NCBI GenBank assembly: GCA_964642275.1
Contig: CAZXOA010000004.1
Span: 1 to 62,042, forward strand
Length of the DNA: 62,042 nucleotides
Direction of reading: 5' to 3'
From: an uncultured Candidatus Saccharibacteria bacterium
GTDB taxonomy: Bacteria; Patescibacteriota; Saccharimonadia; Saccharimonadales; JACDBH01
Under the pieces are notes generated by a model. The model saw only the letters and a program-made list of their open reading frames with translations. It made no database searches and had not been told where the DNA came from. The position numbers and the translations under genes are program-made. Positions 16,578-62,042 of the stretch are shown here, one piece after another. Positions within the stretch are counted from its first letter, which is position 1. Each line of letters opens with the position of its first letter.

Positions 16578-17774
16578 GTGAAGTCATTGCTTATACTTGG
16601 CCGCCAGCCGGCACTCGGCCTGGCCGAACTCGAGAGCCTGTACGGCGCCGATACTGTGCAGGCTGTTGGCAAAGGCGGAGCCCTCCTTGATATCGAACCT
16701 TCGTTAGTACAGTTCGGTCGCCTGGGCGGCAGTATCAAGCTTGCTAAGATAATCCAGGTACACGGCACAACCGATTGGCACAATATTGAGCCGCACCTCG
16801 CCGCCATCACAAAAGACATCGTCGTCGGTCTCGCTGACGGTAAAATACGCCTTGGCATCAGTACTTACGGTATCCGTGTCCACCCCCAGGATGTCAACCG
16901 CACCGGCCTCAGCCTCAAGAAGGCCATCAAGAATGAGGGCCGTTCGGCCCGTATTATTCCCAACAAATCACCAGAGCTCAACAGTGCGCAGGTACTGCAC
17001 AACCAGCTGACTGGCCCTACCGGCATCGAGCTCGTCATCGCCCGCGACGGAGACAAAGTTATCATTGCCCGCACCGTTGCTGAACAAGACATCGAGGCCT
17101 ATGCCGCGCGTGACCAAAACCGCCCCGCCCGAGATGCCAAAGTCGGCATGCTCCCCCCAAAACTGGCACAAATATTGATAAACCTGGCTACCGCCGGTGA
17201 AAATCCGGAGCTAGAGGGCATGGTGCTGGATCCGTTCTGTGGTACTGGCGTGCTGCTCCAAGAAGCCAGGATAATGGGCTATGACACTTTTGGCAGCGAC
17301 ATTGATTCCAGAATGATTGGATATTCTGCCGAAAACCTACTATGGCTTGAGGATAGATTAAACCCGGATAGAAACTACACTCCAACAAGTGTAAAACAGC
17401 TCGAGATTGGCGACGCTACCACCCACAGATGGCAGCTTCAGCCCACCTATATCGCCTGCGAAACTTATCTGGGTAAACCACTCACTTCTCTACCGCCTCG
17501 CCAAGTTCTCGATAAAATCATGGCCGAATGCGACGATATCCACGAAAAATTCCTGCGCAATATCGGCTCACAAATCGAGCCCGGCACACGCCTCTGCCTC
17601 GCTGTCCCGGCATGGCACACAAAAAACGGCTTTTTACACCTTAAAACGCTTGCAAAACTAGATGAACTAGGCTATAATCGACAGAAGTTTGTTCACGCGC
17701 ACAACGAGGAGCTGATTTATCACCGCCCCGGCCAAATAGTCGCCCGTGAACTCGTAGTTTTAGAAAAGAACTAG
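16578..17774 (+). CDS. SAM-dependent RNA/DNA methyltransferase (Trm11/UPF0020-like)
   Basis: LDPFCGTGVLLQEA motif I and a following SDID motif. 398 aa. Confidence 0.8.
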   Translation: MKSLLILGRQPALGLAELESLYGADTVQAVGKGGALLDIEPSLVQFGRLGGSIKLAKIIQVHGTTDWHNIEPHLAAITKDIVVGLADGKIRLGISTYGIRVHPQDVNRTGLSLKKAIKNEGRSARIIPNKSPELNSAQVLHNQLTGPTGIELVIARDGDKVIIARTVAEQDIEAYAARDQNRPARDAKVGMLPPKLAQILINLATAGENPELEGMVLDPFCGTGVLLQEARIMGYDTFGSDIDSRMIGYSAENLLWLEDRLNPDRNYTPTSVKQLEIGDATTHRWQLQPTYIACETYLGKPLTSLPPRQVLDKIMAECDDIHEKFLRNIGSQIEPGTRLCLAVPAWHTKNGFLHLKTLAKLDELGYNRQKFVHAHNEELIYHRPGQIVARELVVLEKN

Positions 17775-17798
17775 TGAAAAATAACCACTGTAAAGCGG

Positions 17799-17911
17799 TT
17801 ATTCTGAGCCAAAGGTAATTTGTTATCAGACGAGGCACCATTCTGGAAGCGTATATACCATACGATGGAAGAATGTCCTTGGCTGAGAGCAAATTACCAT
17901 TCTCAGAATAA
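17799..17911 (+). ncRNA. Long imperfect hairpin element, copy A (candidate structured RNA or leader upstream of rpmA). Strand not established.
   Basis: Basal stem TTATTCTGAG/CTCAGAATAA. Middle stem GGTAATTTGTTATCAG/CTGAGAGCAAATTACC (15/16 paired). Apical stems CATTCT/AGAATG and CGTAT/ATACG. About 74% identical to copy B, with compensatory changes. Confidence 0.45.
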
Positions 17912-17934
17912 GCGCGCGCATAAAGGAACAATAG

Positions 17935-18207
17935 ATGAGTCATGTCAAAGCAGGCGGTACCGCCAAAAACATCCACAACAACGCCGGACAACGTCTTGGC
18001 GTAAAACGCTTTGGCGGCGAAAAAGTTAATAACGGCGAAGTCATCGTCCGCCAGGTCGGCCTCACTAAGCGCGCCGGCGAAGGCACCTATGTCAGCCGCA
18101 ACTACACCATCCACGCCGCAAAAGACGGCATCGTCACCTACAAAAAGCGCAAGGTAAAAACCTTTACTGGCAAAACCACCTTCCGCACCGAAGTCACTGT
18201 GCAGTAG
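17935..18207 (+). CDS. rpmA: 50S ribosomal protein L27
   Basis: N-terminal SHVKAGGTAKN and the overall L27 pattern. An SD-like AAGGA lies 8 nt upstream. 90 aa. Confidence 0.95.
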   Translation: MSHVKAGGTAKNIHNNAGQRLGVKRFGGEKVNNGEVIVRQVGLTKRAGEGTYVSRNYTIHAAKDGIVTYKKRKVKTFTGKTTFRTEVTVQ

Positions 18208-18307
18208 GCAGCATCACCGCCCCGGCTAGAGCCGTTAACATCCTTGGCTGTCCTCTTGAACCCCTTGACATCCTGACGTGAAGTATCTTGTTCTTAAGCA
18301 ATTTTTT

Positions 18308-19423
18308 CTACCTCTGCACTACACTATTTATGTCGTCCACAAGCGTCGAGCCATACCCATATTCGGCCAGCAGCTGCTTCAGCTCAGCAATATGTGCTTG
18401 GTCGGTCAGTATAAGAGGCGTATCCTCCATGAGGACTTCCGAGTTATAGACCCGGAACTCACTCCCAATATCACCAATCGTCAGGCTCGCGATAGTCTTT
18501 GTGCCTATTTCCTCGTCAGGGACTCGTGTACTTTCATGCACATTGTATCCATCACCCCTTAGGCCAAAAGCAATTGGAAAGTTTGCCAGTATAAGCCTAG
18601 CTTCAAGGCTTTCAGGATCCGAAACGACCTGAGCAATGCTTGCCTCAGTGTCTGCTAGCACTTGTCTTACAGCCCTGATGTAGCGCGTCTCTCTGCCCTC
18701 TGTCCGGACAAGGTTCTCCTCAATATGTTGCCTCGCGTCGTCTGCACGCGTCCTTAGGTCATCAAGGCTACGCGGCCCAGAAGGGTCCACCGCGTACTCC
18801 CTGATGTCTTCAGGGGATCTCCAGTCACTGAAACTGATGCTCCCTTGCCCGTCTGAACCAGCACCTATTCTTTCGCCGCTCCCTACTATCTGACCTCTTT
18901 TTCTGGCTTCATGAGCAGAGAGGATAGAGCCATTTTTTAATACGCCAGCAAGCGCTGCTGAAGTTGTGCCGTGGAACCCAATAATGTTATGCTCTACTAT
19001 CGCCTCGGCAACCGAGGGGTAATCAGCAAGCATTTCAGCTAGACGCTGCTTCTTTGGCTCGTAACCGCTGACTGTCCGCTTACCCAGGATCATGGGTATT
19101 GGCCTACCATTAAGCGTAGCCTTCTCTATAATCTCTCGCTGTCTGGCATCTAAGGTCTGATCTGTCTCTGGAGCAATCCCTGCCACTTCAACCGCTGTTG
19201 CCGCCGCTAGTCCACCCGCAATACTTAAGGACTGGTCTCTGTAGGCCTCTGGACTCGGCAGATCATCCAATGCACCCGCCCGTAGCGCTTGATTAGCATT
19301 ATAATTATTGGTTGCAGTCTGAGGATCTGCCCCATAGTAGGTGGATAAATCGGGTGCGGTTAGTTCGGCCATTTTATTTTTGCTTAACGAGTACATAATA
19401 GCATAAGCTTTATTAAAAGTCAA
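18308..19423 (-). CDS. Hypothetical protein with PARP-like ADP-ribosyltransferase motifs
   Basis: FHGTTSAALAGVLKNGSIL resembles the PARP WHGSrttNfAGILsqGLrI motif. GSISFSD resembles GIYFAD. SEFRVYN resembles NEYIVYD. The start is uncertain: TTG 19423, or ATG 19396 or 19372. Confidence 0.55.
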   Translation of the reverse strand: MTFNKAYAIMYSLSKNKMAELTAPDLSTYYGADPQTATNNYNANQALRAGALDDLPSPEAYRDQSLSIAGGLAAATAVEVAGIAPETDQTLDARQREIIEKATLNGRPIPMILGKRTVSGYEPKKQRLAEMLADYPSVAEAIVEHNIIGFHGTTSAALAGVLKNGSILSAHEARKRGQIVGSGERIGAGSDGQGSISFSDWRSPEDIREYAVDPSGPRSLDDLRTRADDARQHIEENLVRTEGRETRYIRAVRQVLADTEASIAQVVSDPESLEARLILANFPIAFGLRGDGYNVHESTRVPDEEIGTKTIASLTIGDIGSEFRVYNSEVLMEDTPLILTDQAHIAELKQLLAEYGYGSTLVDDINSVVQR

Positions 19424-19439
19424 TTATATCGTTGACTTG

Positions 19440-19937
19440 CTACTGTTGGGGTGTTGGATGCTGGACAAGTATAGCCGAGTACATACCAGCCGCCACACTA
19501 GCCACTTCTTCTGTGGCATCAGAACTGTCGAGCAGCTGCTTGAGCCTGGTTTTTGCCATCCCAAGAGCACTTGCATCATTGTGTGCGATAAAGTCTGCAT
19601 AGGCACCGACGGCAATTGATATTTCTCCAACCATCTGAGAATCACCGACTTGGCGCAGATCAGGAGCAATCTGCTGTCTAAAGTAAACATCTATCGACTG
19701 TTGGTCGTCCCAAAACGGCAGGATGACTGCCCGCTTAAGACGGCTCTCTGCAGCATCGATCTCGGAATTCTGCAACGACTGCTGTACACCATTCAGATAA
19801 TCCAAGCGATTCACCTCACCACCTTGCATACCGGCCAGCCTCACACCCTCCATGAGCTCTCTTGCATACCGTGCCGCACGGCTTCCTACATGACTTAGTG
19901 CTGGGTCTTGGTCTGAGAATGCAATCTGCTCTGGCAT
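19440..19937 (-). CDS. Hypothetical helical protein (165 aa)
   Basis: ORF tightly packed between the receiver gene (21-nt gap) and the PARP-like gene (16-nt gap). No family recognised. Confidence 0.55.
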   Translation of the reverse strand: MPEQIAFSDQDPALSHVGSRAARYARELMEGVRLAGMQGGEVNRLDYLNGVQQSLQNSEIDAAESRLKRAVILPFWDDQQSIDVYFRQQIAPDLRQVGDSQMVGEISIAVGAYADFIAHNDASALGMAKTRLKQLLDSSDATEEVASVAAGMYSAILVQHPTPQQ

Positions 19938-19958
19938 ATTTTTGTGTCTAGCAACCGT

Positions 19959-20357
19959 TTACGCGCCGAGGTGCATTTTGATGCGGTCGACCACATCGGC
20001 TATCACAACCTGCGACTTGACCAGATAGTCATCCGCGCCCATGTCTTCTGCTTTTTTACGGTCCGCCTCTTGGCTCAGGGCTGTGAGCATGACAATCTTT
20101 ACATTGGTCAACTCCGGGGTGTTGCGGAGAATATCAAGTACGTCAAAGCCATTTACCTTCGGCATCATCACATCCAGCAGTATCAAATCCGGCCGGAACT
20201 CCACGGCAGTTGCGAGCGCATCTTCACCGTTCGGAACACGGCGTATTTCAAAACCCTCTACCTCAAGACGGGCGATATAGACTTGTGCCAAGTTCTCGTC
20301 ATCTTCAACAAGCAGGACTTTTCGGCGGCGATTTGCCACAGCAGGTGTTTCTTCCAT
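19959..20357 (-). CDS. Canonical single-domain response regulator (CheY-like receiver)
   Basis: LLVEDD acidic pocket, phospho-acceptor DLILLDVMMP, VMLTA and a conserved Lys. 132 aa. Confidence 0.9.
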   Translation of the reverse strand: MEETPAVANRRRKVLLVEDDENLAQVYIARLEVEGFEIRRVPNGEDALATAVEFRPDLILLDVMMPKVNGFDVLDILRNTPELTNVKIVMLTALSQEADRKKAEDMGADDYLVKSQVVIADVVDRIKMHLGA

Positions 20358-20462
20358 ACCCCTTATGCTACCTCAGAGAAGAGAAATTTTCAATTTACAT
20401 TTCTCATTCCACCCTCATTCTTCATTCTGCACTGGATGACCCTACGCCACTGTCAAGCAACC

Positions 20463-20574
20463 TTTTTCAGCCAAGGGGTAACTTGTTCTAAGATGAGGCT
20501 TCCACTCTGGAAACGTATAGTGAAATACGATGAAAGAATGTCCTCACCTTAGAACAAATCACCACTCCGAAAAT
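20463..20574 (+). ncRNA. Long imperfect hairpin element, copy B (paralog of copy A). Strand not established.
   Basis: Same architecture as copy A. Basal stem TTTTCAG/CCGAAAA. Middle stem GGTAACTTGTTCTAAG/CTTAGAACAAATCACC (14/16 paired). Identical apical CGTAT/ATACG and AGAATGTCCT core. Confidence 0.45.
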
Positions 20575-20586
20575 ACTTGCGCGCTG

Positions 20587-22182
20587 CTAAAGGCTTTTTA
20601 TAAAGCCAGAAAAGAGCGGATGCGGACGATTAGGCCGGCTTTTGAATTCCGGGTGGAACTGGCTGGCAATAAAGAATGGATGGTCAACAGCCTCGATAAT
20701 CTCGACTAGATGATTATCCGGCGACGTACCGCTGGCACGGATGCCCCATGATTCATACTGGTCACGATAGTCATTATTACATTCATAGCGGTGCCGGTGG
20801 CGCTCGGTAATTGCCTCCTGCCCGTACAAATTGCGCGCGTTTGAGCCCTTTGCCAACTTGCAATCATAGTTGCCAAGCCGCATTGTGCCGCCGGTGTTTT
20901 CTTTGCCTTCCTGCCCGTCCATAGTCGTAATAACAAGATCTGCCGCCTCTGCATCGAGCTCTTTTGAGGTTGCTCCGGCCAGCCCCGCATTGCGGGCTGC
21001 GGCAATCACTGCCATTTGAAGCCCCAGGCAAAGGCCAAGATACGGCAGCTTTTGCTTAAGCGCATACTGGGCTGCGGCAATCTTGCCCTCAAGCCCGCGT
21101 ATACCGAAACCGCCTGGCACCACAATGCCGTCGATACCCTTCAGTGCTTCTTCTACAGCTTGCTGAGATTTGAGATGTTCAGCATCTATCCAGACAAGCT
21201 CCGTAGAACCTTCTTCGTGCCAGGCCGCTGCCTTGAGCGCCTCAAAAACAGACATGTAAGTATCTTGGTTGTTGAGGTACTTTGCAACAATACCGATTTT
21301 GTAGGTACGCTTGTGACCATTCTTTGCCCGCTCGACCACCTGGCGCCATTCACGGAGCGACGGCTTGCCCGCCTTGAGTGCAAGTTTTTTGACAATAACG
21401 TCATCGATTCCCTTCTCCTCGAGCGTCAGTGGAACCTCGTAGATGGTGCGGGCATTGGGCAAGAGCACAATCGCATCCTTGTCAACGCCGCTAAATAAAC
21501 TCAGTTTCTGAATGACTGATTTTTCTGCCGTATCTTCAGACCGTGCAACCAGTACGTCGGGTACGATACCCAGGCCCCTGAGCTCACGGACAGCATTCTG
21601 CGCCGGTTTGGTCTTGATCTCGTGGCTAGCGCCAAGATATGGCAGATAGACAACATGCACGAACAGGCAGTTTTCGCGGCCAACGCGCATGGCAAGTTCG
21701 CGGATTGCCTCAATAAAACTCAGCCCCTCATAGTCGCCGACCGTGCCGCCGATCTCGACGATATGCACGTCATAGCCATCGGCTGTTGCAATGATCTCGT
21801 CCTGAATGGCAGCAGTCACGTGCGGTATAAACTGGACTGTCTTGCCCTGGTATTTGCCTGCGCGTTCATCAGCAATGACCCGCTGCAGTACCCGCCCGCT
21901 CATGAATGAACTTGACTGCGTCAGCTCCATATCAAGAAAGCGCTCGTAATGGCCGAGATCAAGATCGGTCTCAGCACCATCTTTGGTGACAAAACATTCA
22001 CCGTGCTCAGCCGGATTGAGCGTACCAGCATCAACATTGAGATACGGGTCGCACTTCTGGATATTGACCGAGAGGCCGCGGGATTTGAGGATGTTGCCAA
22101 TCGAGGCGGCCGTGATACCCTTTCCGAGTCCGGAAAGCACACCACCAGTTACAAACACATATTTTGTCGGTCGTTTTGCCAC
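20587..22182 (-). CDS. pyrG: CTP synthase
   Basis: N-terminal KYVFVTGGVLSGLGKGI and a C-terminal glutamine amidotransferase domain (GLCLGLQ). GTG start with SD AAGAGGTG. 531 aa. Confidence 0.97.
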   Translation of the reverse strand: MAKRPTKYVFVTGGVLSGLGKGITAASIGNILKSRGLSVNIQKCDPYLNVDAGTLNPAEHGECFVTKDGAETDLDLGHYERFLDMELTQSSSFMSGRVLQRVIADERAGKYQGKTVQFIPHVTAAIQDEIIATADGYDVHIVEIGGTVGDYEGLSFIEAIRELAMRVGRENCLFVHVVYLPYLGASHEIKTKPAQNAVRELRGLGIVPDVLVARSEDTAEKSVIQKLSLFSGVDKDAIVLLPNARTIYEVPLTLEEKGIDDVIVKKLALKAGKPSLREWRQVVERAKNGHKRTYKIGIVAKYLNNQDTYMSVFEALKAAAWHEEGSTELVWIDAEHLKSQQAVEEALKGIDGIVVPGGFGIRGLEGKIAAAQYALKQKLPYLGLCLGLQMAVIAAARNAGLAGATSKELDAEAADLVITTMDGQEGKENTGGTMRLGNYDCKLAKGSNARNLYGQEAITERHRHRYECNNDYRDQYESWGIRASGTSPDNHLVEIIEAVDHPFFIASQFHPEFKSRPNRPHPLFSGFIKSL

Positions 22183-35986: not shown

Positions 35987-36691
35987 TCAAGAGGCAAGCT
36001 TGGTTGCTGCTGCGACGGCGGCGGTTTCGGCTCTTAGGGTGAGGTTGCCGAGGTGGAAGTGCCCTGCGCCCGCTTCTGCAAATTCTGCTAGCTCTGCCTC
36101 GGTCCAACCGCCTTCGGGACCGATGAAAATCCCACAGGGATTTTCAATATTTGATATTTGATATTTGATATCTGAGAGTGTTTCGTCGCAAACCAGTAAT
36201 TGAACTTCATCTTTATATGTTCCGAGCGCCTTGGTCAGCGTTATCGGCTCGCGCACAAGGGGTATGTCTGAGCGGCCGCACTGCTCTGCTGCCTCTATAA
36301 CAATCGTCTCGGCCCTCTCAAGATTAAAGCCGGTTTTCTCTGACCGGGCTGCAATAATTGGCACGAAGGTTCGTACGCCAAGCTCGGTGCACTTTTGCAA
36401 TACCCAGTCGTTCTTATCTTTCTTCAGCAAGCTGAAGAAAAGATATATGTGCTTTGCAGGGAGTTTGCGCTCAAATTCGGTCACCATCTCGAGCTTGATA
36501 CCGCCCTGGGGTTCGATGGTGGCAATTTTGTATAATCTCTCGGTTTCGACCCCGTCAAAAAGCACCAGCTGGTCGCCCTCGCGGTAGCGCAGTACGCGCA
36601 GCCACTGGTTTTTGAGGCGCTCGTCATTGACCCATAAACTTTGCGTGAGCTCCAGGTCTTCTGGCCTGATATAAAAACGGTGCAGCTTCAT
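35987..36691 (-). CDS. rsmE: 16S rRNA (uracil1498-N3)-methyltransferase
   Basis: MKLHRFYI N-terminus, PUA-like domain and FIGPEGGWTEAE motif. 234 aa. Carries a heptamer-array insertion. Confidence 0.9.
   Translation of the reverse strand: MKLHRFYIRPEDLELTQSLWVNDERLKNQWLRVLRYREGDQLVLFDGVETERLYKIATIEPQGGIKLEMVTEFERKLPAKHIYLFFSLLKKDKNDWVLQKCTELGVRTFVPIIAARSEKTGFNLERAETIVIEAAEQCGRSDIPLVREPITLTKALGTYKDEVQLLVCDETLSDIKYQISNIENPCGIFIGPEGGWTEAELAEFAEAGAGHFHLGNLTLRAETAAVAAATKLAS
36147..36174. repeat. (ATATTTG)x4 heptamer array inside rsmE (sense strand AAATATC-type)
   Basis: Units at 36147-53, 36154-60, 36161-67 and 36168-74 (last unit ATATCTG). Encodes DIKYQISNI. 36145-36171 is the reverse complement of 51705-51731. 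Confidence 0.9.
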
Positions 36692-49966: not shown

Positions 49967-51022
49967 ATGCAAGAAAAATCACAAACATACCGATCTGAAC
50001 TCACCGAACTGGAATCCAAACTGCAGGATCCAGGCATCTTCAGCACACCCGAATACCCTAAACTTGCAAAACGGCTTAGCGACCTGCAAGAGCTCGTTGG
50101 ATTGTTTGACGAGATCGCAAGGCTGCGGGCTCAGCGGACAGAGGCAGAAGAGCTGGCGCGCGGTAATGATGAAATGGCAGAGCTCGCCCAGGCAGAGCTC
50201 CAAGAAATTGATACGAAACTACCCGAACTTGAGAGTAGATTGCAGGAAGCACTGACACCAAAAGATCCCAACGACGAGCGCAATGCTATCTTCGAAATCC
50301 GCGCCGCAGCCGGCGGTGATGAATCGTCCTTATTCGCCGCTGAGCTCTACCGCATGTATGCCCGCTTCTGTGAAACCCACAACCTCAAGGTAGAGCTTCT
50401 GAGCGAGAGCCCCTCAGACGCTGGCGGATTTAAAGAGATCAGCTTCATCGTCCGAGGAGTCGAAGCTTACGGCCAGCTCAAATTCGAGGCCGGTGTGCAG
50501 CGTGTGCAGCGCGTCCCGGCTACCGAATCTCAGGGGCGTATCCATACCAGCACCGTCACCGTTGCCGTGCTGCCCGAGGCAGAAGAATCAGATATAGAGA
50601 TCAAAGATAACGACCTACGCGTCGATGTCTACCGCAGCGGCGGCCACGGCGGCCAGTCCGTCAACACCACTGACTCGGCCGTCCGTATTACGCACATCCC
50701 AACTGGTATTGTCGTTACCAATCAGGACGAAAAATCTCAGATCAAAAACAAGCTCAAAGCCATGAGTGTGCTGCGAAGCCGCCTGCTCCAGAATAAAATT
50801 GATGAAGAAAATGCCAAACTATCCGCCCAGCGCCAAAAGCTCATCGGCAGCGGCGACCGCTCAGAAAAAATCCGAACCTATAATTTCCCGCAGGATCGTA
50901 TCACCGATCATCGTATCGGCTACAGCCGGTCAAACATCCCCGGTGCCTTGAGCGGCCAAATCGACGACCTCATAGAAGAACTCAAAAAAGCCGAACACGA
51001 ACTGCTTGCAGATGAAGGCTGA
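49967..51022 (+). CDS. prfA: Peptide chain release factor 1
   Basis: PAT tripeptide (RVPATES) and a GGQ motif (GGHGGQSVN). ATG 49967 is preferred because GAGG lies 6 nt upstream. The ORF opens at TTG 49955. Confidence 0.96.
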
Positions 51023-51848
51023 AGCTTGGCTTGCTAGGGCTGCTAAAGAGCTTGGGTCCAGCGGTATATCGACTGCACGACTGGACGCTCTAGTTTTACT
51101 TGAGGACGCCACTGGTAAAGACCGGGCTTGGATACTTGCCCATACTGGCTTTGAGTTGCAAGCTTCCAATGTACAAAAACTAGATAAACAGATAAAGCGT
51201 CGGGCAGCGCACGAGCCGTTGGCTTATATCCGCGGCAAGAGCGAGTTCTATGGGCGGGAGTTTAAGGTGACGCCCGCTACACTGCAGCCGCGGCCGGAGA
51301 CAGAGACTATGCTTGAACTGCTGTTCGAGCAAGTTGAAAGTGGGAAGTTGAAAGTGGGAAGTGTCATAGATGTGGGTACTGGTTCCGGGGCGATTGCCAT
51401 TACAGCCAAACTGGAGTGGCCAGAGGTAAATGTTTACGCTACAGAAATCAATGGGGATGCGCTGGAAGTTGCCAGACAAAACGCCCGGAAGCTCGATGCA
51501 GACATACAGCTTTACCAAGGCAACTTGCTAGAGCCCTTGACATCTGGAATCTGGAATCTGGAATCTGGCAAGTTGGCGATTCTTGCCAATTTACCCTACG
51601 TGCCGGACAGCCACACGATCAACCAAGCCGCTATGCAGGAACCGAAGGTCGCGATTTTTGGCGGCGAAGACGGATTAGATCTTTACCGCGAGCTATTCAC
51701 TCAAATATCAAATATCAAATATCAAATATTGGTCATGTTGACCGAGTCTTTGCCCTTCCAGCACCAAGCGCTGGCGGACATCGCCCGGACAGCAGGATAT
51801 GAGCTGCAACAAACTGAGGACTTCATCCAGATTTTCTGTCCAGCTTAG
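51006..51848 (+). CDS. prmC: Release-factor glutamine N5-methyltransferase PrmC/HemK
   Basis: Motif [12 protein letters not shown] and an NLPYV (NPPY-type) motif. It overlaps the prfA end by 17 nt. It carries three internal short-unit tandem arrays. Confidence 0.88.
51331..51363. repeat. 14-nt (2 x 7) unit AAGTTGAAAGTGGG x2.4 inside prmC
   Basis: Units at 51331-44 and 51345-58, partial unit at 51359-63. Encodes [10 protein letters not shown]. Confidence 0.9.
51542..51569. repeat. (ATCTGGA)x4 heptamer array inside prmC
   Basis: Units at 51542-48, 51549-55, 51556-62 and 51563-69 (last unit ATCTGGC). Encodes SGIWNLESG, just before the NPPY-type motif. Confidence 0.9.
51702..51729. repeat. (CAAATAT)x4 heptamer array inside prmC, same unit as the rsmE array
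   Basis: Four perfect units at 51702-51729. Encodes QISNIKYQI. 51705-51731 is identical to the sense strand of 36145-36171. Confidence 0.9.
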
Positions 51849-60104: not shown

Positions 60105-62039
60105 TTACTGAATGATGAAGTAGTCGAATATGTACGTGTGGCCGAGATCTGGCGGGTTGACAAAGTGGATGGTAAAACCAGTAGGCGTTGTCTCTACATA
60201 GTAGACGGCACCCGCTGTAGCCTGGTTCTTAGCAGTCAGTGCAATCTTTGGCTGCGCGGTATAGGCACTGGTAAACGTGACTTTTACCTGTTCACCCGCT
60301 ACGGACGGGTTAACGCCTGAGGCTGCATAGGTAATCGAGCCGGCAATATCGTTGCCATTGATAGTAATGGTACCTGTTGACGCCGCTTGGGCTCCAAGGA
60401 CCGCAGTAGCCGGGTTACCGGCAGAGATGATTTTGCCACTTACCGTAATGTTACCTGCAAAGTTACCCTGCTCCACCGCCAGCAGACGGTTCTCTAGATT
60501 AGTTACCTTAACATCAAGCTGTTGGACACTTGTTACCAGAAGTGCGGTGATGACGTTGGGGTTGAATGAAGCCACTTCTCCATTAGCGTCATAGGTGACG
60601 GCTTGCGGGATAATACCCGCGACTGCTTCGGCAATGAAGCCATAGTCGAGCTGTCCGGTAGAAGTCCAAGTGTAGCTGACGGCCTGTAGGAGACGCAGCT
60701 CATCAAGGCCATAGGCACCAGCGGTCACATCAGTCTTAAACCGTGACGATGAGGTACAGCCAGCCAGTTGACCTGCGCTATTACGGCAGACGGCGGCAGC
60801 GGTGTCGGCAGTCGCTGCTGCATAAGTAACGATACCTGTAGTGATCCCTCCCGTAACATTGAGACCTTGCTTAAAGATAGCCGCACCCTGCACAGTCAGC
60901 CCACCGCCAATAGACACGCCACCCTGCAAATTGGCATCACCGGTCATATTGAGGGCGCTGTCATGGCCGCCGCCAGAGGTCATGACGCGGTTGGTGCCAT
61001 TTCTTCCTACTGCCACAAACAGGCCGTTGCCGTAGGTTATACCATGCCACCAGTTAGCTTCAGTAGCGGTGCGAGCAGTCCAAGTGATGCCGTCCGGGCT
61101 GGTCATGACGCGGTTGGTGCCTTCTGCTACTGCTACAAACATACCATTGCCGTAGGTGACAGAAAGCCAGAAATTTGCCTCTGCGGCAGTTCTAGCCGTC
61201 CAGGTGATGCCGTCTGGGGAGGTCATGACGCGGTTGGTGCCGTCAGATGAAACCGCCACGAAGAGGCCGTTGCCGTAGGTGACGGAGTACCAGCTGTTAG
61301 CTTCGGCAGCGGTGCGTGGGGTCCAGGTGATGCCGTCTGGGGAGGTCATGACGCGGTTGGTGCCACTAGTGGAAGTTGCTACAAACAGGCCATTACCGTA
61401 GGTGATACCAAGCCAACTATTAGCTTCGGCGGCGGTGCGTGGAGTCCAGGTGATACCGTCTGGGGAGGTCATGACGCGGTTGGTGCCGTTACCACTCACT
61501 GCCACAAACAAGCCATTGCCGTAGGTGATAGAGTACCACTGGTTGGCTTCGGCGGCGGCCCGTGGGGACCAGTCTATACCATTTGGGCTGGTCATGACGC
61601 GGTTGGTGCCGTCAAGAGATACGGCTACGAATAGCCCATTGCCGTAGGTGATGGAGTACCAGAAATTTGCCTCTGCGGCAGTTCTAGCCGTCCAGGTGAT
61701 GCCGTCTGGGGAGGTCATGACGCGGTTGGTGCCGTCAGATGAAACCGCCACGAAGAGGCCGTTGCCGTAGGTAATAGAACGCCACTGATTTGCTTGAGCA
61801 GCGGTGCGGGGGGTCCAGGTGTCAGCCTGGCGGAGGTTGCTAGTGACACTCAGTGTCCCCTGCACTTCTGTATGGCCAGATACTCGTAGACCAAGACCAA
61901 GATCATGCTGCATAGTCATGATATAAGTGCCATTGATACCAACAGCAACGAAGAGGCCGTTGCCGTAACCGACCGAGCGCCAACTACTATCAGCTGCGCT
62001 GGTGCGAGTTGTCCAGGTAATACCGTCTGGTGAGGTCAT
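60105..62039 (-). CDS. Large repeat protein, 5'-partial. Contains Asp-box (SxDxGxTW) beta-propeller blades, a beta-helix-like region, an internal S74-like intramolecular-chaperone domain and a 120-aa C-terminal module.
   Basis: At least 9 repeats of about 41 aa (NRVMTSPDGITWT.RTAAEAN.W..ITYGNGLFVAV). SSRFKTDV...YGFIAEAV...LENRL matches the endosialidase-chaperone (Peptidase_S74) pattern. The ORF runs off the window end. Confidence 0.85.
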   Translation of the reverse strand: MTSPDGITWTTRTSAADSSWRSVGYGNGLFVAVGINGTYIMTMQHDLGLGLRVSGHTEVQGTLSVTSNLRQADTWTPRTAAQANQWRSITYGNGLFVAVSSDGTNRVMTSPDGITWTARTAAEANFWYSITYGNGLFVAVSLDGTNRVMTSPNGIDWSPRAAAEANQWYSITYGNGLFVAVSGNGTNRVMTSPDGITWTPRTAAEANSWLGITYGNGLFVATSTSGTNRVMTSPDGITWTPRTAAEANSWYSVTYGNGLFVAVSSDGTNRVMTSPDGITWTARTAAEANFWLSVTYGNGMFVAVAEGTNRVMTSPDGITWTARTATEANWWHGITYGNGLFVAVGRNGTNRVMTSGGGHDSALNMTGDANLQGGVSIGGGLTVQGAAIFKQGLNVTGGITTGIVTYAAATADTAAAVCRNSAGQLAGCTSSSRFKTDVTAGAYGLDELRLLQAVSYTWTSTGQLDYGFIAEAVAGIIPQAVTYDANGEVASFNPNVITALLVTSVQQLDVKVTNLENRLLAVEQGNFAGNITVSGKIISAGNPATAVLGAQAASTGTITINGNDIAGSITYAASGVNPSVAGEQVKVTFTSAYTAQPKIALTAKNQATAGAVYYVETTPTGFTIHFVNPPDLGHTYIFDYFIIQ

Positions 62040-62042
62040 GAC
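60960..62042. repeat. Tandem 123-bp (41-codon) coding repeats
   Basis: The string GTCATGACGCGG recurs at 60979, 61102, 61222, 61345, 61468, 61591 and 61714 (spacing 123, 120, 123, 123, 123, 123). A truncated copy starts at 62035, at the window edge. Confidence 0.9.

Follow-up and report, generated by a model that had tools for sequence, protein, structure and literature searches.

An imperfect hairpin lies between a methyltransferase gene and rpmA, the gene for ribosomal protein L27, in a 62,042-nucleotide (nt) contig from an uncultured Candidatus Saccharibacteria bacterium (assembly GCA_964642275.1, contig CAZXOA010000004.1, positions 1 to 62,042; the whole of this stretch is called the window below). 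We found that the hairpin belongs to one copy (copy A) of a dispersed palindromic element of ~140 bp, a second copy of which (copy B) lies between pyrG and a response-regulator gene. Our reading, to which we give a probability of about one in two, is that copy A is a member of an old, clade-restricted family of palindromic repeats resembling the ERIC and Correia elements, and that it has been kept as an mRNA hairpin. What the data show directly is the structure, its covariation, strand-specific selection, positional rules, filled and empty sites, and a narrow distribution.

Conservation of the hairpin upstream of rpmA

An earlier note on this DNA had proposed a 113-nt imperfect hairpin at positions 17799-17911, and folding bears this out. 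The RNA of positions 17770-17940 folds at -57.8 kcal/mol, compared with -33.5 ± 4.0 kcal/mol for dinucleotide shuffles (z = -6.1; 0 of 200 shuffles were equally stable), and the minus strand of the region is less stable (-47.9 kcal/mol, z = -3.9). All of the stems proposed for the hairpin were found where they had been placed, the middle stem having 15 of 16 pairs if its single G-U counts as a pair. The extent was right only for the hairpin itself: the full element is larger (17785-17922) and has conserved flanks beyond the hairpin. The GCGCGCGC run (17912-17919), the AAGGA (17923-17927), and the rpmA start codon (17935) follow as described, and rpmA does stand without rplU, the gene directly upstream being the methyltransferase. 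In the full-length fold of copy A, none of the 25 nt downstream of the element is paired.

The fold is conserved, with strong covariation, in the copies that covariance-model searches recovered from relatives. In a model-guided alignment of these copies, pairing holds in 94.5% of the cells, and in 27 of 46 pairs both partners have changed (111 cells). All 500 shuffles fell short on every measure of pairing or covariation, and sliding the partner strand by 1 to 3 columns reduced pairing to ~40%. An independent MAFFT alignment analyzed with RNAalifold returned the same hairpin (45 pairs, 27 of them compensatory). Individual copies fold at -34 to -70 kcal/mol around a consensus of 45 to 46 pairs.

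Because the outer stems covary while the apical sequence stays fixed, the element is two-layered: its stem has only to stay paired, whereas its apical motif depends on the sequence itself. In 20 of 20 copies the apical stem reads CGUAU/AUACG, a single U-G pair being the exception; the internal loop (GGAAR/GRUGGA) and the GAGGCUUCCA segment are nearly invariant, and the terminal loop is variable. Inspection ruled out a K-turn, since the apical loop is a 5x5 loop and not a 3-nt bulge with tandem G-A pairs. A pseudoknot between CCAC of the 5' box and the apical GUGG was also rejected, as the CCAG and AUGG variants are uncompensated. Coding potential was ruled out for the short open reading frames (ORFs) that run over copies A and B, which look alike because the underlying DNA is alike.

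A repeat family in one Saccharibacteria lineage

Pattern scans and two covariance models (R1 and R2) recovered 23 copies of the element, one of them divergent and two truncated by contig ends. Two are in the window, 16 (including the divergent one) are in seven Saccharibacteria metagenome-assembled genomes (MAGs), one is on a contig binned as Terrimonas, and four are on metagenome contigs. Copies occur on at most five contigs of a single MAG and on 2 or 3 in several others. Copy A scores 148.6 bits in cmsearch (E = 5e-39, model positions 1-139), and copy B is 82% identical to it and in the same orientation; the window holds exactly these two copies, also with the search filters off. Across 80 Saccharibacteria rpmA loci (1.2 Mb), the element occurs only at L027 and L028 and is absent from the other 78. 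A scan of the whole metagenome collection gave five loci, and none was found in viral contigs or in phage and plasmid collections. The first pattern used on genomes, ATACGATGNAAGAATGTCC, was discarded, as 23 of its 24 loci were chance matches in unrelated phyla. The copies have a GC content of 39 to 51% and occur singly.

The earlier note had recognized no known leader at rpmA, which a search against Rfam 15 confirmed: the whole window gave 0 matches at the gathering score, and nothing relevant appeared at E ≤ 10 in 17600-20800. Literature searches on the element also found nothing. The family is thus new, and for this phylum neither elements of this type nor regulation at the RNA level have been described.

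The divergent copy (L027:7959-8098, minus strand; 35 bits) keeps essentially only the apical core and the long stem. It follows the rpmA stop codon directly, in antisense, so that rpmA in that genome is flanked by two copies; the window has no counterpart, and its positions 18195-18320 fold no better than shuffles. At L113, a 30-nt 5' fragment (ccactgttaagcagccattttgagccaag, within 2150-2211) lies ~20 nt upstream of a complete copy and is a remnant of rearrangement or of nested insertion. The contig in the Terrimonas bin (L115, CAZREP010000102.1) carries a typical copy at its end; as the element is specific to Saccharibacteria, this contig is probably mis-binned.

Two positional classes

Each copy was read in its own sense orientation, and the neighboring genes were identified with Pfam. 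In every copy, the 3' end of the element adjoins a coding-region boundary, and the copies fall into two classes by which boundary this is.

Class i (12 copies at 6 distinct loci) lies in sense before a gene, the 3' end being 3 to 5 nt before a strong Shine-Dalgarno (SD) sequence and 9 to 13 nt before the ATG. The downstream order is GCGCRC, AWA, (A)AGGAG, 5 to 8 nt, and ATG. The genes concerned encode L27 (the window, L027, L028, L108, and L121), EF-Tu (tuf; L116 and L119), a KGG-motif stress protein (L109 and L120), GroEL (L114), EF-P, and S18 (rpsR; the last two both in L107). The copy before the GroEL gene lies 26 nt past the apparent end of an upstream ORF that we take, by eye, to be groES.

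Class ii (9 full-length copies and the divergent one) is antisense to its neighbors. Its 3' end lies between -4 and +12 nt from the stop codon of the convergent gene, and its 5' end faces a spacer of 70 to 215 nt that leads to the next gene of that other strand. The gene pairs are pyrG and then the response regulator (copy B); pyk and then pgk (L001); pilC and then a pilin-like gene (L105); ppa and then gap, and an FKBP isomerase gene and then an nrdH-like gene (both L111); and others in L110, L113, L117, and L122. The transcript of pyrG and the response-regulator gene thus carries the antisense version of copy B. None of the copies read had the opposite layout, in which the 5' end abuts a stop codon and the 3' end is distant from genes, against about nine cases of the standard one.

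Selection on the transcribed strand

An A-C mismatch on one strand of a stem is a G-U pair on the other, so that the two can be counted against each other as a measure of strand. The class i stems contain 31 G-U pairs versus 4 A-C mismatches (binomial P = 3.5e-6), a count that includes orthologous and hence not fully independent copies from 6 distinct loci; every one of these loci has two or more G-U pairs and no more than two A-C mismatches. In class i, the sense RNA gives the better fold in 11 of 11 copies. The excess of G-U pairs in class i therefore indicates that what is selected is the RNA strand transcribed together with the downstream gene. The class ii stems differ from class i (12 G-U versus 9 A-C; Fisher P = 0.01). 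Copy B is the most extreme: it has 4 A-C mismatches in sense, which are G-U pairs in antisense, and folds at -34 kcal/mol in sense and -56 kcal/mol in antisense; several class ii copies are nearly perfect Watson-Crick hairpins that can fold on either strand.

Conservation at rpmA points in the same direction. The orthologous rpmA-linked copies are 73 to 86% identical, compared with 39 to 63% at the 4-fold degenerate sites of rpmA; it follows that the rpmA-linked element evolves under purifying selection in place. Covariation, G-U bias, and ortholog identity together support reading the hairpin of copy A as a conserved and selected RNA structure between the upstream gene and the rpmA SD sequence.

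Filled and empty sites

The junction between the methyltransferase gene and rpmA is filled by an insert of ~150 nt in the window, L027, L028, L108, and L121, and is empty in L025 and L026, the closest L27 relatives (84% and 83%), where the gap from stop codon to SD sequence is 10 to 25 nt. At the junction of pyrG with the response-regulator gene, only the window has an insert, copy B, within a spacer of 229 nt; five relatives have an empty site (~40 to 70 nt), and two of these empty sites, in L028 and L108, belong to relatives that carry the rpmA-linked copy. Such filled and empty sites, together with the fragment at L113, are signs of past movement or loss of the element.

The copies are nonetheless old. 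Their mean pairwise identity is 70%, and the closest nonorthologous pair reaches 85%; within multi-copy MAGs the identity is 66 to 77%. They cluster by locus and not by genome. TAA or TA often closes the 5' flank, and (A)TAA or TA often opens the 3' flank, but the flanks are AT-rich and several copies lack the pattern. Empty and filled sites are too diverged to reveal any target duplication. The earlier note had named, as a reading that would undo its own, a multi-copy mobile repeat with no transcript. In part this is what was found, as the element is multi-copy and polymorphic in presence, but the selection at the RNA level is clear.

A proposed role: repeats kept as mRNA hairpins

We propose that members of the repeat spread within one small Saccharibacteria lineage and that selection then kept them as RNA hairpins. 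In the sense arrangement, the element would be transcribed as part of the 5' untranslated region (UTR), placing an imperfect hairpin of ~55 bp beside an exposed strong SD sequence. The hairpin may protect the 5' part of the message from nucleases or define a processed 5' end, and it may shield the ribosome-binding site from upstream sequence, including where genes are co-transcribed, as would be the case for the methyltransferase gene with rpmA and for groES with groEL. Protection or shielding of this kind would favor high and stable expression. In the antisense arrangement, the element would form a 3'-terminal protective or insulating hairpin after the stop codon and before the promoter of the next gene; at the empty pyrG sites, the stop codon is followed directly by the response-regulator promoter. 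A duplex of ~55 bp would be an obvious substrate for RNase III, by analogy with Correia elements, and the invariant apical stem with its purine-rich loop may imply a specific partner, whether an RNA-binding protein, a nuclease, or a former mobilization machinery.

Where the RNA of copy A would begin can be placed in two ways. The sigma-70-like site at 17650-17678 is likely the rpmA promoter: its form, TTGnnn-17-TATAMT, is conserved in L025 to L028, in element-bearing and element-free relatives alike. A start there, ~105 nt upstream of the element, would make the hairpin internal to a leader of ~250 nt. Alternatively, a -10-like hexamer of the TAnAAT type stops 1 to 3 nt short of the element in 8 of 11 class i copies and in 0 of 10 class ii copies (background, ~10%), and a start ~7 nt past it would put the 5' end of the RNA at the first pair of the hairpin. 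The matching -35 sequences are weak, and the AT-rich flank could instead be an insertion footprint. Promoter elements within the repeat were also considered. A -10-like CAnAAT in the 3' arm before GCGCRC was ruled out by inspection of the alignment; it has no conserved -35, because that region covaries as a stem. A TTNACA resembling a -35 hexamer, read on the complementary strand of the 5' box, was rejected, as no suitably spaced -10 occurs in the class ii flanks; the pilin and response-regulator genes have their own promoters further on. An intrinsic terminator is excluded by the lack of a U-run on either strand, and canonical terminator-like tails occur upstream of some copies.

Several points weigh against the reading that these are old mobile repeats kept as mRNA hairpins. 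The copy number is low, about 5 to 10 per genome; there are no near-identical copies or clear target-site duplications among the copies; and no transposase gene was noticed beside them in ~8 to 20 kb around each, where no dedicated search was made. Because the copies are few and divergent, and no clear duplication or transposase is at hand, the case for a mobile origin comes down to the filled and empty sites and the dispersion. Many of the counts include nonindependent orthologues, and there are only 6 distinct class i loci. Class ii has no strand asymmetry, so that the evidence on an RNA role for this class is neutral. A generic stabilizing hairpin leaves the invariant apical motif unexplained while the other stems covary. 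Finally, transcription, the 5' ends, an effect on mRNA stability or translation, and a recognizing factor are what we infer from sequence.

Alternative explanations

The element could instead be a dedicated cis-regulatory RNA. A trans-acting protein, or possibly a small ligand, would bind the conserved apical motif, and the family would constitute a clade-specific post-transcriptional regulon of L27, S18, EF-Tu, EF-P, GroEL, and the KGG-motif protein. The apical stem and loops are invariant while all other stems covary, and the apical core alone survives in the divergent copy; all 6 class i loci precede genes for translation, chaperone, or stress functions at a fixed distance to the SD sequence; and the selection at the RNA level is strong. 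About half of the copies, however, lie antisense behind stop codons, which is unusual for a leader. The SD sequence is not sequestered, no expression platform is visible, and no candidate binding protein was identified. The presence of the element before a given gene also differs among close relatives, so that such regulation would be dispensable. We think such a regulon possible but unlikely, and we would put forward only tentatively its more specific form, a transferable "high-expression leader" bound by a dedicated protein that co-controls the class i genes, for example by growth state. The protein would bind the invariant purine-rich apical internal loop, which may resemble a loop-E-type platform.

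The multiple dispersed copies, the filled and empty states at two sites, the fragment beside a full copy, the TA or TAA often found at both flanks, and the narrow distribution would also suit a purely selfish mobile element of the MITE type (miniature transposable element with inverted repeats), whose gene-adjacent positions are simply the insertions tolerated in a very compact genome. Against this, the copies are old and divergent (mean identity 70%, none near-identical), yet they still pair at 94.5% of stem positions through compensatory changes. Orthologous copies evolve more slowly than synonymous sites, the class i G-U bias tracks the transcribed strand, and orientation is nonrandom, with the 3' end at a stop codon about nine times and the reverse never. 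Neither a transposase nor matching terminal repeats turned up near the copies, without a search dedicated to them. A purely selfish element seems quite unlikely.

We consider it very unlikely that the element acts as DNA, whether as a cruciform or single-strand hairpin or as a palindromic operator (CGTAT-N6-7-ATACG) for a recombinase, nucleoid protein, or transcription factor. Such a role would fit the invariant palindromic apical sequence, which shows no covariation, the placement of copies ahead of highly expressed genes in both orientations (class i copies ahead of tuf, groEL, and rpmA; class ii copies ahead of pgk, gap, and pilin), and the near-perfect Watson-Crick hairpins of class ii with their lack of G-U bias. 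It gives no reason for the 31 G-U versus 4 A-C in class i, whose copies sit inside the transcript, past the likely promoter and ahead of the SD sequence. The test for integron attC core sites failed: GTTAAGC is present in some 5' boxes but replaced by GTCAAGC or GTAAAGC in others, the opposite end is GCGCRC and not RYYYAAC, and the neighbors are housekeeping genes, not cassettes.

The -10-like hexamer before 8 of 11 class i copies and the better folding of several class ii copies as sense RNA might suggest an independent small RNA gene with its own promoter, at least for the antisense copies. It is these copies that would need a promoter of their own, and the hexamer occurs in 0 of 10 of them, with a weak -35 elsewhere; no terminator follows the element, and a class i RNA would run on into the downstream gene. 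This makes a small RNA gene highly improbable.

Hardly credible is the model of the earlier note, an L27-responsive or otherwise switchable attenuator in which a 7-bp upstream hairpin competes with the basal stem. The upstream pairing does exist (-8.3 kcal/mol with the 3' arm omitted) and is kept in the 4 of 4 full-length rpmA-linked orthologues tested, where on its own it folds at -8 to -12 kcal/mol, and partly in the KGG copies; in these copies the 5' flank happens to look like the 3' arm of the element (...AAAATAA). The copies at efp, groEL, and rpsR and those of class ii lack the pairing, and it shows no clear compensatory change. At about -8 versus -57 kcal/mol, it never displaces the main hairpin, which always wins in full-length minimum-energy folds. 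No terminator-like site or U-run occurs at or after the element, the sequence beyond the hairpin being GCGCGC-ATAAAGGA. Because the main hairpin wins, no terminator or U-run follows, and the SD sequence is unpaired in the full-length fold, we see no attenuator here. Nor is it a leader specific to rpmA or L27, since it also precedes tuf, groEL, efp, rpsR, and the KGG gene and lies antisense behind pyrG, pyk, pilC, and ppa, since the two closest L27 relatives keep the methyltransferase-rpmA junction without it, and since no Rfam ribosomal-protein leader matches.

Features of the window

The features of copies A and B and their surroundings are collected in Table 1. The response-regulator gene, here and in L108, L026, and L029, is preceded by a conserved TTGnnn-17-TAGCAT and then 7 nt to the ATG; because of this spacing, and because the relatives show no SD sequence, we suggest that its mRNA is leaderless. 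Between rpmA and the response-regulator gene lie ORFs of 371 and 165 amino acids (18308-19423 and 19440-19937, minus strand), neither of which has a Pfam match at E ≤ 0.01.

Table 1. Coordinates of the two copies of the element, their parts, and neighboring features in the window
Feature	Position	Strand	Remarks
Methyltransferase gene (UPF0020/RMKL-like)	16578-17774	+	Stop codon 10 nt ahead of the element
Candidate rpmA promoter, TTGCAA-17-TATAAT	17650-17678	+	Promoter-like; within the 3' end (last ~100 nt) of the methyltransferase gene
Alternative 7-bp hairpin	17780-17803	+	AATAACC (17780-17786) with GGTTATT (17797-17803)
Copy A, full element (class i)	17785-17922	+	Sense, before rpmA; limits from covariance model
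5' box, CCACTGTAAAGC	17785-17796	+	Mostly unpaired, conserved; family consensus CCACTGTYAAGC; from alignments
Main imperfect hairpin	17799-17911	+	From fold; 45-46 consensus pairs, 27 with compensatory changes
Basal stem, copy A	17799-17808 with 17902-17911	+	TTATTCTGAG with CTCAGAATAA; read from sequence
Middle stem, copy A			GGTAATTTGTTATCAG with CTGAGAGCAAATTACC; 15/16 counting one G-U, plus one A-G mismatch
Apical stems, copy A		+	CATTCT/AGAATG and CGTAT/ATACG
Apical conserved core	17832-17881	+	Stems GAGG/CCTT(G), CATTCT/AGAATG, and CGTAT/ATACG; internal loop
Purine-rich internal loop (5x5)	17845-17849 and 17865-17869	+	GGAAG/ATGGA; in the apical core
Invariant apical stem	17850-17854 with 17860-17864	+	CGTAT/ATACG; closes the variable terminal loop
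3' end box, GCGCGCGC	17912-17919	+	Family consensus GCGCRC; closes the outer stem
Shine-Dalgarno sequence of rpmA, AAGGA	17923-17927	+	3 nt past the element; unpaired in full-length fold
rpmA (ribosomal protein L27)	17935-18207	+	Pfam PF01016 Ribosomal_L27, E = 8e-20
Response-regulator gene	19959-20357	-	89 nt beyond the 5' end of copy B; promoter-like site 20393-20365
Copy B (class ii)	20447-20587	+ (sense)	Between pyrG and the response-regulator gene (both -); cmsearch 141.6 bits
pyrG (CTP synthase)	20587-22182	-	The end of copy B runs into the stop codon (20587-20589)

Two other repeats occur in the window. A 32-nt inverted-repeat pair (36145-36176 and 51700-51731, 97% complementary) was considered as the boundary of a mobile element and rejected, because its arms are heptanucleotide microsatellites, (ATATCAA) ~3.5 times on the coding strand, within the ORFs 35987-36691 (minus strand) and 51006-51848 (plus strand). 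By eye, we take these ORFs to encode RsmE-like and PrmC/HemK-like methyltransferases. As the period is 7 nt, a change in copy number would shift the frame, so that phase variation is possible. The second repeat is a tandem array at 60976-62042 (period of 123 nt, at least 8 copies, 65 to 82% identity) that reaches the end of the window and probably encodes 41-residue repeats of a large protein.

Relation to known elements

The element shares several features with MITE-like repeats such as ERIC, Correia, and RUP: it is noncoding and shorter than 200 bp, dispersed in multiple copies, able to form a stable stem-loop, and present at filled and empty sites. Near-identical recent copies, which also characterize such repeats, were not found.

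The ERIC or IRU elements of enterobacteria, imperfect palindromes of 127 bp, are alike in size, in their intergenic position in either orientation, and in their long stem-loop; they too are old, with copies largely fixed in place and with filled and empty sites between relatives. ERIC elements share a transcript with the genes beside them, and their effect on mRNA stability depends on orientation (PMC2229807). The orientation dependence proposed here parallels that of ERIC. There is no sequence similarity, and the copy number, ~5 to 10 per ~1-Mb genome, is much lower. The element also differs from ERIC in its stricter distance of 3 to 5 nt to the SD sequence of highly expressed genes, in its invariant apical motif, and in its host among Saccharibacteria of the candidate phyla radiation (CPR).

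Correia elements of Neisseria (NEMIS or CREE) are likewise inverted repeats of ~100 to 155 bp that often lie 5' of genes and form mRNA hairpins. In 5' UTRs, their hairpins serve as substrates of RNase III and change expression; the core of these elements is conserved and directional (PMC2649163). They occur in 100 to 250 near-identical copies with clear TA duplication, IHF sites, and promoter-generating ends, whereas the element described here has few copies, which diverge from one another (mean identity 70%), and neither an internal promoter nor a clear target duplication turned up in them; their flanks are possibly of the TA type, as in Correia.

The class i arrangement, a stable hairpin upstream of an exposed strong SD sequence in highly expressed messages, resembles that of 5' stabilizers. 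Stem-loops of this kind are known from the ompA 5' UTR and from Bacillus messages of the aprE and ermC type. These are short, gene-specific, and nonrepeated, without a conserved apical motif or antisense copies behind stop codons. A start following the -10-like hexamer would put the hairpin at the extreme 5' end, as in 5' stabilizers; the better-conserved rpmA promoter ~105 nt upstream would make it internal to the UTR, unlike them. Ribosomal-protein leaders (the L21/L27 type and others in Rfam) are similar in being structured RNAs directly upstream of a ribosomal-protein gene. The element differs from these in that it has no Rfam match, also precedes other types of genes, is absent from most rpmA loci, and leaves the SD sequence exposed.

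REP/RAYT elements (GC-rich palindromes of 20 to 40 bp with a GTAG/CGTC head) were ruled out, as the element is 140 bp long, occurs singly, and has no such architecture. Known long-hairpin RNAs (6S, SRP/4.5S, and others) were ruled out because no Rfam covariance model matches.

Significance

The element is distinctive in its low copy number, in its fixed distance to the SD sequence of top-expressed genes, and in its invariant apical motif. To our knowledge, almost nothing is known of RNA-level gene control in Saccharibacteria or other CPR bacteria. For annotation, a label of L27 leader or riboswitch is unwarranted, and the covariance model marks a specific Saccharibacteria lineage. The element also provides a concrete sequence for reporter systems. 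If it does act as an mRNA hairpin, it would be a clear case of a host with a minimal genome keeping a repeat as an expression module; if it is instead a factor-bound leader, it would represent a post-transcriptional regulon built by spreading one RNA module.

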